A DNA stretch of 64,000 bases from Candidatus Atabeyarchaeum deiterrae (GTDB lineage Archaea; Asgardarchaeota; Atabeyarchaeia; Atabeyarchaeales; Atabeyarchaeaceae), in the NCBI GenBank assembly GCA_037310415.1, contig CP147780.1:2400001-2464000 (forward strand), in the 5' to 3' direction. Positions 10,455-25,042 of the stretch are shown in pieces. The translations under genes were made by a program, and so were the position numbers. A model generated the notes under the pieces. It was not told where the DNA came from and made no database searches. It saw only the letters and a program-made list of their open reading frames with translations. Position 1 is the first letter of the stretch, and every line of letters begins with the position of its first letter.

Positions 10455-10592
10455 GCCGCCGTAGCTCAGCCGGCAGAGCGCCAGCCACAGAGGCGAAACA
10501 TGGTGTTTTGCCTCCAACTGGAATCGTATTTGCAGACTTGGGTCAGACGGGCAAGTTGGTGGTCGCGAGTTCAAGTCTCGCCGGCGGCTCCA
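10455..10592 (+). tRNA. tRNA-Thr(CGT) with two introns (32/33: 10487-10523; 37/38: 10529-10553), CCA encoded
   Basis: Acceptor GCCGCCG/CGGCGGC + T discriminator + CCA; D arm GCTC/GAGC; anticodon stem CCAGC/GTTGG; T arm GCGAG-TTCAAGT-CTCGC. Removing both introns gives the loop CT-CGT-AA. Each intron has a BHB-type junction. Confidence 0.92.
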
Positions 10593-20652: not shown

Positions 20653-21912
20653 TCATCGTATGTATGGTGAGCCTTTTTCAATTGTGTTGTTCAACATCGC
20701 GCTGATCTGTTTGGGCACCGTCTTGTTGTTAATGAGTAAGCTTCGCGTCTTTCTGATCAGCTTCGGGGTGTCTATTTCCATGGGGCAGACTTCTTTGCAT
20801 CTTCCACATTGGGTACAGCTAAAGGCTTGCGTTGCCACCGAGTCGAGGCCCAAGGTAAAGAGCGTCCAAGGAACCCCTAATCCACCCATATAGGTGAATT
20901 CTCCATAATCATGGGCGACCAAGTTCCATACCGGGCAATCGTACAGACACGTACCACACCTTAGGCATGTGAAGGCTTCCTTGAAGTCAGCATCTTGAGC
21001 CATTTTTCTCCTTCCGTTGTCAAGCAGGATTACGTCTATCTCGGCTGGTCCAGCTGCAGGTTTCACTGAGAGCCTTTCTATATCCGAGCTGCTAGATATT
21101 CCCATTATCTGAGTTATGTACTGAGTAGTTGCATGACCCGTTGTGTAGAGTGGCATAACCTGACAGTAGAGATTAGCCGTGTCACGATCTGGCATGACCT
21201 TGTCTATGCCTGCTATAATGATGTGTTTCTCAGGCAACGATGTGACTAACCGATCATTGCCCTCGTTCGTTACCAAGTAGACGGTTCCAGTATCAGCTGT
21301 GATTGCATTCGCGCCTGAGACAGCAACTTTGGACTTGATAGATTTCTCCCGGATGAAATCTCTTACGAAGGCAACTAAGACGTTGGGATCTGGCGGCAGT
21401 TTTCTTCCTGCAAGCTTGCTGAAGTACTCCGCGAACACTTCTTTCGGAACTGAGATAGAGACTCCAGTCGGATGAGCCGCCTTTCTGTGTGCAACTTGCA
21501 GCAGCACTGCGCCCACATCGGTTTCCCAAATCTCTATTCCGTGTTCTTCGAGGAACTCGTTCAAACCTATTTCTTCGGTTGTTAGACTCTTAACTTTTGT
21601 TACAAGTTTCTCATTGCCGATAAGCTCGAGTGTCTTGCTGCAGGCTTCATGTGCGTCCTTTGCTTGGTAGACTTTCATTCCATTTTCTTGCATGATCTCG
21701 ACGGCTTTCTTGATATTCTCTTCGAGATGGTCGAGCGCTTCTCTTCTTCGGTTCTTCAGCTCCTTTGCCAAGTCTTGGATGTTTGTCACACGTTTAAGCC
21801 ATGTTTCTTTCCTAACTCTGTAGTTGGTTATCGCTTTCTCGACAGCGGTCCGAAGGAACGGGTCGTTCGCATCCTTAAGCAACTTCTGATAATATGAATC
21901 GAAATCAGCCAT
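20653..21912 (-). CDS. LutB/LldF-like protein (LUD domain plus 4Fe-4S dicluster)
   Basis: KVKSLTTEEIGLN, ETDVG, VTNEGN, LLDNGRR, CLRCGTCLYDCP, CTQCGRCKEVCP. Confidence 0.88.
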   Translation of the reverse strand: MADFDSYYQKLLKDANDPFLRTAVEKAITNYRVRKETWLKRVTNIQDLAKELKNRRREALDHLEENIKKAVEIMQENGMKVYQAKDAHEACSKTLELIGNEKLVTKVKSLTTEEIGLNEFLEEHGIEIWETDVGAVLLQVAHRKAAHPTGVSISVPKEVFAEYFSKLAGRKLPPDPNVLVAFVRDFIREKSIKSKVAVSGANAITADTGTVYLVTNEGNDRLVTSLPEKHIIIAGIDKVMPDRDTANLYCQVMPLYTTGHATTQYITQIMGISSSSDIERLSVKPAAGPAEIDVILLDNGRRKMAQDADFKEAFTCLRCGTCLYDCPVWNLVAHDYGEFTYMGGLGVPWTLFTLGLDSVATQAFSCTQCGRCKEVCPMEIDTPKLIRKTRSLLINNKTVPKQISAMLNNTIEKGSPYIR

Positions 21913-21953
21913 TGACCTTTCTTCCTCCTTATGCAGTCAAGTCCCTCGCTTCC

Positions 21954-22703
21954 TTACCACTCTTCTTCTCCTGTCAGTCTCCTGTAGATATAGGTACTAA
22001 GATCAAGAACCTGAATCTCCTTGCCAGTCTCTGCCTCTCTTCGAGATGCGCCCACTGTTAAGTTGAACACACATGATGGGCAGGCAGTTATGAGTTTGCT
22101 CACGCCTAGGGGTTCAATATCCTTCCGAATCCTGTTTTCAGCCATCTTCACAGAGAATTCTGGTTCGATCGCAAACATCGCGCCACCAGCTCCACAACAC
22201 CTTGATTCGACTCTAGTTGCCTGGGGCTCGACTAGTTCTGCCACTCTTGCTATTACTTTCCTGGGTGCTTCATATTCTCCAGCGAGTCTCCCCAATTCAC
22301 ATGGGTCATGATACGATACTTTCTCCTTCGTCGTGTCCTTGAAGTCCAGCTTCTCTATGTTCTCTGCCAAGATCTGGGACATGTGCTGCACTTTCGGTAT
22401 TCTTAGCCCGAGTTCAGGGTATTCTAGTGCAAGGACTCTATAACAACCAGCACATTCGGTTGCGATGAGATCAACCTTAGCCGAATTGAAGGCCTGAGTA
22501 TTCTTCCTAGCGATTTTCAGTGCATTCTCTTTGTCACCCGTCAGTAGTAGCGGGTCGCCGCAGCACCATTCGTTCTCAAGCCTCTTCACACTTAGACCTA
22601 TTCTTTTCAGTAGTTCTACGTGTTTGCCAATATCTTCGGAGAAACGGGCTCTAGCGGTGCAACCAGCGAAGTATAAGACAGTCTTAGGCATTTGCGAAGG
22701 CAC
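21954..22703 (-). CDS. Fe-S oxidoreductase with two CCG domains (LutA/GlcF/HdrD-like)
   Basis: YFAGC, EWCCG, ECAGC, YHDPCELGR, CCGAGG, TACPSC. Confidence 0.88.
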   Translation of the reverse strand: MPSQMPKTVLYFAGCTARARFSEDIGKHVELLKRIGLSVKRLENEWCCGDPLLLTGDKENALKIARKNTQAFNSAKVDLIATECAGCYRVLALEYPELGLRIPKVQHMSQILAENIEKLDFKDTTKEKVSYHDPCELGRLAGEYEAPRKVIARVAELVEPQATRVESRCCGAGGAMFAIEPEFSVKMAENRIRKDIEPLGVSKLITACPSCVFNLTVGASRREAETGKEIQVLDLSTYIYRRLTGEEEW

Positions 22704-22985
22704 CTTCCATCAACATGATGAATCAGAGTTTGCTCCTATCAGATGAGCGGTCTTTATGGGGTTTATTCTTCCCACTTTAATACTTAACTGAGCCTATCTC
22801 TCGTCTGCAATATGAATCGTTAGGTGTTTGGGCTATCTGTTACAGCGACCCAATTTCCTAAGTAAATCTTGCACTAGGACTTGCCGAGGCGCGTCGGACA
22901 CTGAGGGCCATTCTCCCTTCTCTGACGCCACGTCGGTTTACTGACGCACCTGTCGAAAAATCGGAGGTTGGGAGATTTGGTCAAC

Positions 22986-23043
22986 TCTGGCTAAGTTTTC
23001 GGAACGAAAACTCATGTTGTTTTTCGTTTTCATTCCTTCCAAA
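22986..23043 (-). promoter_or_regulatory. Candidate eukaryote-like SECIS element in the 3' UTR
   Basis: Minus strand reads UUUGG-AAGGA-AUGA-A-AACGAAAA-ACAACAUGAG-UUUUCGUU-CC-GA-AAACUUAG-CCAGA. This gives an AUGA/GA core, an 8-bp upper stem and an A-containing apical loop. The AUGA begins 13 nt after the stop of a TGA-containing ORF. Confidence 0.65.
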
Positions 23044-23046
23044 CCT

Positions 23047-23505
23047 CTATTCTTTTATTGTTCTGAGTACATCGAATATTTCCTCGTTCTTGGGAATATC
23101 TCTCATTGAATCTCCGTAATGCGCGTAACGGATGATTCCTTTCTTGTCTACTACCAGCAGAGCTGGCATCCTCCCGAACTTGTGGAGAATAACCTCTTGA
23201 TGCAGCATGTTTGCAACCTTCTTGCTTTCATCATAGTATATTGGGTACCTTCCTTTCGCGTACTTCTCCTCTAGCTTCTTGGCATTCTCTAGTTTGTCAG
23301 CGGTAATAGGGTATAGCAGCGCTTCAAGCTGCTCAAATCCACTGAACCCGCTTGCGAGACCGGCGATGTGTCCTCTGCAGTATGGTCAGTTTATGCCTCT
23401 TAGTAGGACAATGACAACGTTTTTCTTTCCCTCGAAGTCCCTAATGTTGACTGTTTCTCCTCTTGAGTTCGGGAGGCTAAACTCTGGGATCTTTGTTCTT
23501 ACCAT
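23047..23505 (-). CDS. Peroxiredoxin-like (AhpC/TSA-redoxin fold) selenoprotein with UxxC motif
   Basis: MVRTKIPEFSLPNSRGETVNIRDFEGKKNVVIVLLRGIN-[TGA 23388-23386]-PYCRGH...MPALLVVDKKGIIRYAHYGDSMRDIPKNEEIF. The single in-frame TGA falls exactly at the first Cys of the CxxC motif and the frame is otherwise intact (152 aa). Absent from the ORF track. Confidence 0.88.
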
Positions 23506-23653
23506 CTGGAACTTGTCGTTCGTTTTGCAGGTGCCTCCTCTTGTTGCTAAGTGGTTAACATAGTATCCTCTTCAACTTATATTCGTAGCCATCGTAACGC
23601 CAGCGCACATTCTCAGAGGCACCCTTTAATCAAGGGCTGGCGCGATTCGAGTT

Positions 23654-24343
23654 CTAGATAGGATTACTCTTTGAGATTATGGACTCAACCTCGTACCAAT
23701 CCCTGGCTATAGGAACCCTGACTTTCGAAGTGATTTCCCTTGCAACTTGAGGAGACAATGCGATGCCAATGACCATAGGAATGAAATCGGCCATTACCTT
23801 AAGATCGCTCGGCTCATCATCGATTCCTACTGCAAGTTCGTGAACCTTGCCAAGTTCCTCAAGGGCGCCTCGTTTGTATTTCGCCGTAGACATCATCCTG
23901 TCAGGCTTCATGCAGAGCAGCACTTCGCGGTCATTTGGCATTGGAAAACCAAATTTCGACAAAGACGCGAGGGTCTCACTCCTCAAGGAATCTCTCTTTG
24001 AGTGATGCCTTCCTGTCAAATATGTGATGCCAATATTCATAGAACGCAGCCTGGAAAGGACCGCAACAGATCCCTTGACAGGGGTGTCGAGATCCATGTA
24101 TTTGCCAGACAAGAATACGTCGTAGAACTTACTTCGTTGAACCCTTGAAAGGTCACTGACTTCAGAGACCCTCGGAGCAGCATCCGTACTGCAATTCAAG
24201 GCTTCGGCGATGGATCGGTTGAATCTGACTCGACTGTCAATTACGGTGTTGTCCAAGTCGCTAACAAGAAACCATCTTTCGGAGGCCTTTGTGGATACTT
24301 TGCTTTCGCCTTGGTGCATAAACAAGTAACCAGCCTCCTGCAA
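23654..24343 (-). CDS. HAD-superfamily phosphatase-like protein
   Basis: SDLDNTV, YLTGR, K, GIDDEPSD. Confidence 0.8.
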   Translation of the reverse strand: MQEAGYLFMHQGESKVSTKASERWFLVSDLDNTVIDSRVRFNRSIAEALNCSTDAAPRVSEVSDLSRVQRSKFYDVFLSGKYMDLDTPVKGSVAVLSRLRSMNIGITYLTGRHHSKRDSLRSETLASLSKFGFPMPNDREVLLCMKPDRMMSTAKYKRGALEELGKVHELAVGIDDEPSDLKVMADFIPMVIGIALSPQVAREITSKVRVPIARDWYEVESIISKSNPI

Positions 24344-24502: not shown

Positions 24503-25042
24503 ATGAATACCAAAAAGAATGGCGCTGATGCAGAGTACATGTTCAAGATTATCCTTGTTGGAGATGGCGCCGTCGGCAAATCCTCATTGATCCGCAAATA
24601 CATGGAAGGAAAATTCGAATCAGACTACTTGCCAACAATCGGTTCGCAGATCTACACAAAAACATTATCGAATAGAACCCATAGAAAGGTCAAACTCGTG
24701 GTGTGGGACATTTCTGGGCAACCAGTATTTGGTATAGTGCGACCAGACTACTACAAGGGGGCCACAGGAGTCCTCCTCGTGTTTGACCTGACGAGACCAG
24801 AAACTTACAGTCATCTCGATGGCTGGGTTGAAGAAATACGCAAAAACACTTCGAAACCTGAGATCATTGTCATTGGAAACAAATCAGATCTTGAGGTCGA
24901 CCGCAAAGTTTCACGGAAATCTGGCGAGGCGTATGCTTCCAAGGTCAATGGCTCCTATCTCGAGACGTCAGCGAAAGGTGGAAACAACGTAGAAAAGACC
25001 TTCAGTGATCTTGCAGACAGACTTGTGGAAAACATTCATTAG
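24503..25042 (+). CDS. Rab-like small GTPase
   Basis: G1 GDGAVGKS, G2 PTIG, G3 WDISGQ, G4 GNKSD, G5 ETSAK. No C-terminal prenylation cysteine. Confidence 0.95.
   Translation: MNTKKNGADAEYMFKIILVGDGAVGKSSLIRKYMEGKFESDYLPTIGSQIYTKTLSNRTHRKVKLVVWDISGQPVFGIVRPDYYKGATGVLLVFDLTRPETYSHLDGWVEEIRKNTSKPEIIVIGNKSDLEVDRKVSRKSGEAYASKVNGSYLETSAKGGNNVEKTFSDLADRLVENIH

Follow-up and report, generated by a model that had tools for sequence, protein, structure and literature searches.

Whether an apparent gap of about 950 bp in the coding sequence of Candidatus Atabeyarchaeum deiterrae conceals a selenoprotein gene, in which an in-frame TGA is read as selenocysteine (Sec, U), is the question raised by the locus described here. 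It lies in a stretch of 64,000 nucleotides, in the following called the window, which corresponds to positions 2,400,001-2,464,000 of the single contig of 2,756,679 bp that makes up the genome. With translation table 11, no open reading frame (ORF) of at least 60 amino acids is found between window positions 22703 and 23654. In line with the original prediction, however, translation together with the ORF list reveals that this gap contains an intact frame of the redoxin fold with a single interruption. Hereby, the minus strand from 23505 to 23047 forms one 152-codon AhpC/TSA (redoxin) frame, which starts with ATG at 23505, ends with TAG at 23049-23047 and has TGA at 23388-23386 (codon 40) as its only internal stop, within the motif ...LLRGIN-U-PYCRGH.... 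Read through, the sequence around the proposed Sec is MVRTKIPEFSLPNSRGETVNIRDFEGKKNVVIVLLRGIN-U-PYCRGH.... The gene, here called PrxL (peroxiredoxin-like), and the two codons of its redox box are located as follows:

23047..23505, minus strand: PrxL coding sequence, 151 residues plus the proposed Sec at codon 40 (translation, Pfam, AlphaFold2, orthologues)
23386..23388, minus strand: in-frame TGA, proposed Sec (U40), first position of the UxxC redox box (conservation of the aligned codon)
23377..23379, minus strand: codon of Cys43, second UxxC position and sole Cys of the PrxL protein

The read-through product matches the Pfam families AhpC-TSA (PF00578, E 7.4e-20, residues 2-127 on profile positions 1-123/124) and Redoxin (PF08534, E 8.9e-15). 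Since the AhpC-TSA match runs across the TGA, family-like sequence is present on both sides of it, as had been claimed. The genome contains only this one PrxL gene. Downstream of it, the minus strand at 20653-22703 encodes a 249-aa protein with a CCG domain and a 419-aa one with a LUD domain and 4Fe-4S motifs; the pair resembles LutA/LutB, and wetland and soil contigs carry identical proteins. The plus strand at 24503-25042 encodes a small GTPase of 179 aa that resembles Ras, Rab and Arf (GDGAVGKS ... WDISGQ); such genes are a typical signature of Asgard archaea.

In all Sec-using archaea, and not in eukaryotes alone, a SECIS element in the 3' UTR is the norm; in bacteria, the signal is a hairpin to which SelB binds and which lies within the coding sequence, immediately behind the UGA. 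A SECIS-like hairpin had been noted behind the PrxL stop codon, and closer analysis confirms a structure at this place, namely a 72-nt covarying RNA of three helices (P1 to P3), separated from the stop codon by a single base. Its parts are:

22974..23045, minus strand: 72-nt three-helix 3'-UTR element, SECIS candidate (minimum free energy (MFE) folding, covariation, covariance model)
23039-23045 with 22974-22980, minus strand: P1 (GAUUUGG/CCAAAUC)
23026-23036 with 23001-23011, minus strand: P2, with the A-rich apical loop 23012-23025 (GAAAAACAACAUGA)
22983-22997, minus strand: P3 hairpin, loop UAGCCA
22956..22960, minus strand: oligo-U tract UUUUU, likely transcript end, 14 nt after the element (read from the sequence)

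The element folds with -20.0 kcal/mol (z = -3.5; none of 200 shuffles is as stable), and its unconstrained MFE structure is the three-helix structure. A conserved block directly 3' of the stop codon is found in all Asgard PrxL genes compared. In a trimmed alignment of 33 distinct elements from 33 species (76 columns), 90.3% of the cells are paired, as compared to 33-54% when the partners are slid against each other; double changes occur at 16 of the 23 pairs, and on none of five measures does any of 500 shuffles do as well. Across the orthologues, P2 measures 9-11 bp and its A-rich apical loop mostly ends with AUGA(G), while the nearly invariant P3 loop UAGCCA represents the most invariant feature of the element. 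GC-rich Asgard and Loki lineages, judged by eye and outside the pair count, form the same three helices with other letters. A structure consisting of P2 only, obtained with RNAalifold from the first, untrimmed alignment, was discarded, as part of the rows had P1 and P3 out of register; the trimmed alignment restored both.

A covariance model built from the alignment (R1) has one match in the whole genome, the PrxL element itself (71.9 bits), and finds no second element of the PrxL type there; R1 thus points to no further selenoprotein genes in this genome. In other Asgard genomes, it matches copies on which it was not trained and which follow tandem PrxL paralogues with UxxA and UxxU boxes. 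These paralogues carry the boxes U-P-Y-A, which lacks the resolving Cys, and U-G-H-U, with two Sec, and their elements, of the same three-helix 3' type, are located at L029:754-824, L031 and L038:1293-1365, and L035:2351-2421. T-rich runs follow the element in most orthologues, oligo-T being an archaeal terminator signal. Further downstream, beyond the SECIS candidate and the oligo-U tract, the region 22868-22946 is GC-rich and shows long-range complementarity. It was considered as a non-coding RNA and rejected, because BLAST matches to two genomes of the same family (G001, G002) end short and the fold of the gene strand is unexceptional. Taken together, stability, covariation and position suggest that the 72-nt three-helix RNA is the SECIS of PrxL.

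Which type of recoding signal this element represents is less readily answered. The 60 nt that follow the UGA form no better hairpin than their shuffles (z = 0.16), and scanning the 3' intergenic region over its full length for the euryarchaeal structure with its GAA_A bulge yields no match; thus, neither the bacterial nor the euryarchaeal SECIS type is indicated. Likewise, an Rfam cmscan of 22600-23700 with E values up to 10 returns no SECIS family, only matches at chance level. The original prediction had assumed a 3'-UTR mechanism like that of eukaryotes. Of this, the location after the stop codon is supported. An AUGA...GA kink-turn core is doubtful for PrxL, as it lacks conservation in the orthologues. 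To our knowledge, no SBP2 has been found in archaea. The published lokiSECIS is situated in the 3' UTR, next to the stop; its helix measures about 9 bp and carries an apical loop of roughly 11 nt that is rich in A and has AG at its end. The PrxL element fits this description with its P2 of 9-11 bp, its loop GAAAAACAACAUGA(G) and its position 1 nt after the stop.

One reading of the signal follows from this likeness: the element would work as a eukaryote-like kink-turn SECIS, composed of AUGA, a 9-bp helix, an A-rich loop and GA, with the extra helices being accessory. Apart from stem and loop, which agree with the lokiSECIS description, the copy studied here can indeed be written as AUGA-AAACGAAAA-(10-nt loop ending AG)-UUUUCGUUC-C-GA, and a loose pattern modelled on the published one fits as well. 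Moreover, the 3' elements of two further genes of this genome, SelD (contig 900276-900370, plus strand) and VhuD (contig 826900-826990, minus strand), show a clean AUGA-9bp...9bp-GA arrangement and share with the PrxL element an enclosing lower stem and a 3' auxiliary hairpin (loops AAGCGGG and CAAAGCA). A strict AUGA-stem-GA scan of the genome recovers the elements of PrxL and VhuD as well as four further places, which have no obvious selenoprotein gene upstream. The orthologues, however, speak against a kink-turn in PrxL. AUGA is absent from 32 of the 33 aligned elements, where AAUA or a similar sequence takes its place, and GA follows the helix in just two of the 33. At alignment pair 16-43, 29 elements have A-U and one has G-C, so that the G of AUGA acts as a Watson-Crick partner whose compensating C is found only in the copy studied here. 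In addition, this copy could adopt the kink-turn register only with an A.C pair and a bulged C, and a perfect 11-bp helix is in competition with it. We therefore regard this reading as rather unlikely for PrxL.

Alternatively, the Asgard PrxL signal could be a distinct form of SECIS, i.e. a three-way junction of P1, P2 and P3 in which AUGA...GA is not conserved and the UAGCCA hairpin is the most invariant part. We put this forward tentatively, as a possibility that is less likely than not. If it is true, this form would occur next to SelD and VhuD elements that can be written AUGA...GA, and the archaeal SECIS reader would recognise something other than a kink-turn. Such a form may already be known from published PrxL alignments, and the published consensus may have concealed it by trimming alignment columns specific to PrxL. 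Tandem G.A pairs inside the apical loop (GA...UGA), which about a third of the elements are able to form, are a speculation at this point. In conclusion, the kink-turn core is doubtful and unproven for this PrxL gene, and we take the three-helix element as the SECIS candidate.

Recoding of UGA moreover depends on the genome's Sec machinery, which appears to be complete. As the original prediction stated, none of its genes lies in the window; those found are situated at contig positions 203-212 kb and 899-900 kb. SepSecS (TIGR03531, 487 bits), EFSec/SelB (TIGR00475, 286 bits) and SelD/SPS (TIGR00476, 237 bits) all score above the curated cut-offs, while the PSTK-like gene (TIGR03574, 167 bits, E 4.8e-49), a candidate for PSTK, stays below the NCBIfam cut-off of 290.5. 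The genes for the PSTK candidate, SepSecS, EFSec and tRNA-Sec are clustered at 203-212 kb. SelD has an in-frame TGA of its own, in HG-U-SCKIPQ, and further selenoprotein genes of the genome include SelD (one TGA) and MvhD/VhuD (two TGA).

The tRNA-Sec gene is interrupted. A search of the whole genome with the Rfam tRNA-Sec model scored 150 of 239 candidates, and among these its one hit was a tRNA-Val with an intron; applied to the machinery stretch, the model gives 25.9 bits on the unspliced gene, with the anticodon loop CUUCAAA. The gene spans 179 nt (contig 208757-208935, plus strand; L018:10757-10935). Its acceptor stem is a perfect helix of 9 bp (GGCGCCCGA/UCGGGCGCC), followed by the discriminator G and an encoded CCA, and inserts of 38, 22 and 25 nt are located in the D arm, the variable arm and the T arm, respectively. 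In the same-family genomes G001 and G002 the four blocks are conserved and the three inserts are variable. Using putative splice sites derived from this three-genome alignment, splicing in silico yields a tRNA of 94 nt whose unconstrained MFE structure is a 9/4 cloverleaf with the anticodon UCA. Its anticodon stem has 6 bp, its variable arm is long, and its T stem of 4 bp carries the loop UUCGAUU. When all three inserts were tried, a bulge-helix-bulge motif was plausible only at that of the variable arm. ARAGORN reports only 7-24 tRNAs for the genome, and very few unless introns are allowed. Within the window, it places an intron-containing tRNA-Ala(CGC) at 10455-10592 (plus strand).

To evaluate the conservation of the TGA, homologues were searched in one genome per prokaryotic species, which gave 80 related loci, of which 42 (37 Asgard, 5 bacterial) were translated. 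All 42 have TGA at the aligned codon, in U-P-[YF]-C or near variants. The Asgard loci include LC30, Freyarchaeia, Jordarchaeum, Borrarchaeum, Hermodarchaeota, Lokiarchaeum, Promethearchaeum and Sigynarchaeum, and the five bacterial ones include Anaerolineae, Marinimicrobia, Sumerlaeota and Chloracidobacterium. By tblastn, the nearest loci belong to the Asgard MAG LC30 (81%), a complete Freyarchaeia chromosome (74%) and Candidatus Jordarchaeum (73%). The closed 2.8-Mb same-family genome G001 likewise reads LLRGIS-U-PYCRGH, with TGA at the aligned codon. Other residues are seen in a large protein collection: full-length relatives carry W at the Sec site (P0001-P0027, P0028, P0030, P0031 and P0036 were inspected), one homologue named Helarchaeota has Cys (P0036, CPFC), and three, one of them named Helarchaeota, have Asp (DPFC/DLFC). 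The closest relatives in this collection end at about 90 residues, as expected from a gene caller that stops at TGA.

The many W entries bear on the possibility that a suppressor tRNA or near-cognate read-through places a standard amino acid (Trp, Cys, Gly or Arg) at the UGA. ARAGORN might seem to supply the tRNA, since it reports a tRNA-SeC(tca) with the anticodon UCA at contig 246125-246215, whose body is identical to that of a tRNA-Trp(cca) 2.3 kb away (243848-243938), each having a 13-nt intron. If the intron is placed at the canonical position 37/38, however, the two become tRNA-Arg(UCG) and tRNA-Arg(CCG), precisely the isoacceptors absent from the ARAGORN list, and a separate tRNA-Trp is present. 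Judged from their sequences, both are thus probably arginine tRNAs and neither would be a UGA suppressor, and the apparent tRNA-SeC was dropped. The W entries, in turn, fit gene calls of TGA with genetic code 4 on short contigs, because in genome records the same protein family has TGA at that codon. TGA is also the commonest stop codon of the genome, ending 449 of 1127 long frames; being an ordinary stop elsewhere and conserved here, it points to local recoding and not to an altered genetic code. Finally, the TGA occupies the first, catalytic position of a CxxC box, and a homologue with Cys there exists. Decoding as a standard amino acid is accordingly very improbable. A nonsense mutation or an assembly error that turned PrxL into a pseudogene has a negligible probability: table 11 does cut the frame into ORFs of 39 and 53 aa, but the frame is otherwise intact, shares 73-83% amino-acid identity with orthologues in related Asgard genomes and lies in a genome with apparently complete Sec machinery, and because the TGA is kept in all translated homologues, as well as in G001, mutation and sequencing error are excluded as its source.

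The in-frame UGA of PrxL thus almost certainly encodes Sec. The conserved TGA, the machinery and the covarying 3' element jointly support the claim that this organism recodes UGA as Sec, and the grounds on which that claim might have been abandoned, a genome devoid of Sec machinery and homologues that never have TGA, are both contradicted by these data. PrxL would be a cytosolic peroxiredoxin-like selenoprotein of 152 residues with the AhpC/TSA fold. UGA at codon 40 would be decoded by Sec-tRNA(Sec), delivered by an EFSec of the archaeal/eukaryal type, so that Sec is inserted at this position, and the three-helix RNA one base past the stop would direct the recoding.

The AlphaFold2 model of PrxL (pLDDT 95.4, pTM 0.91) places U40 directly before helix 41-52. 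The nearest solved folds are Sulfolobus Bcp1 (3drn, TM 0.86), Mycobacterium tuberculosis AhpE (TM 0.88) and Bacillus subtilis ResA (TM 0.77-0.85), and the best sequence match in the PDB is the thioredoxin-family protein 3hdc, whose CPYC aligns with UPYC. In the alignment with Bcp1, the Thr position corresponds to U40 and the peroxidatic Cys to C43. In this thioredoxin/peroxiredoxin fold, U40-P-Y-C43 would accordingly form a redox box at the N-terminal end of the first helix. The selenolate of Sec40 would attack as nucleophile and Cys43 would resolve the intermediate to a selenenylsulfide, which may make PrxL a thiol-dependent reductase of peroxides or disulfides. These catalytic roles and the substrate are deduced from fold and alignment; according to Mariotti et al. 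(2016, PMC4989117), the biochemistry of the family has never been characterised. Taken as one explanation, Sec at codon 40, decoding by EFSec, the three-helix 3' signal and the redox role of U40 and C43 are, in our judgement, highly probable.

PrxL is a real selenoprotein gene and an already known one. UxxC and UxxU PrxL selenoproteins were described in Lokiarchaeota (Mariotti et al. 2016, PMC4989117), and Prx-like selenoproteins in Jordarchaeia and Sifarchaeia (Sun et al. 2021, PMC9723677). Huang et al. (2024, PMC11227280) found PrxL in 43% of the Sec-using Asgard genomes, and Valentin-Alvarado et al. (2024, PMC11291895) reported it in each complete wetland-soil Atabeyarchaeia and Freyarchaeia genome, together with Sec machinery and 'eukaryotic-like' SECIS elements. 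These four studies agree with the original prediction that UxxC peroxiredoxin-like selenoproteins are known, including from Asgard archaea. As there is one PrxL gene in this genome, the statement of the latter study on Atabeyarchaeia would most likely concern the gene analysed here, which is thus probably included in the published family. The locus illustrates that standard gene callers miss real Asgard selenoprotein genes, which are either split or translated with the wrong genetic code (W at the Sec site), and that the Sec trait appears complete in this lineage. Neither point is new, because Asgard PrxL and the 3'-UTR SECIS have been in print since 2016. What might go beyond these publications is the covariation-backed three-helix 3' element of PrxL that lacks a conserved kink-turn core, which bears on what recognises SECIS elements in archaea.

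Compared to the known Asgard PrxL selenoproteins, nothing essential is different. The AhpC/TSA fold and the UxxC box with Sec in place of the first Cys are the same, as are the lack of Cys outside the redox box (reported for Loki PrxL, PMC4989117; C43 is the sole Cys here), the 3'-UTR signal near the stop and the co-occurrence with Sec-containing SelD and MvhD. The published consensus, however, stresses the AUGA...GA core, whereas in the PrxL elements compared here this core is not conserved and P1 and P3 (loop UAGCCA) are. Bacterial Prx-like UxxC selenoproteins (cited in PMC4989117) share family and Sec position, with TGA in the five bacterial homologues; they differ by a coding-region hairpin after the UGA, in place of which PrxL has a 3'-UTR signal and no stable hairpin. 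BCP/PrxQ and AhpE (3drn, 1xxu) and proteins of the ResA/TlpA type (1st9, 3hdc) have the same fold (TM 0.77-0.88) at an identity of just 15-22%, and in the peroxiredoxins the motif is Thr/Ser-x-x-Cys, with Sec taking the Thr position in PrxL. With the eukaryotic SECIS_1 and the euryarchaeal GAA_A SECIS, finally, the PrxL element shares its place in the 3' UTR, the length of its helix (about 9-11 bp) and the A-rich loop at its apex. It differs in that it matches no Rfam SECIS family (E up to 10), has no GAA_A bulge and no conserved AUGA...GA, and is built as a three-way junction.
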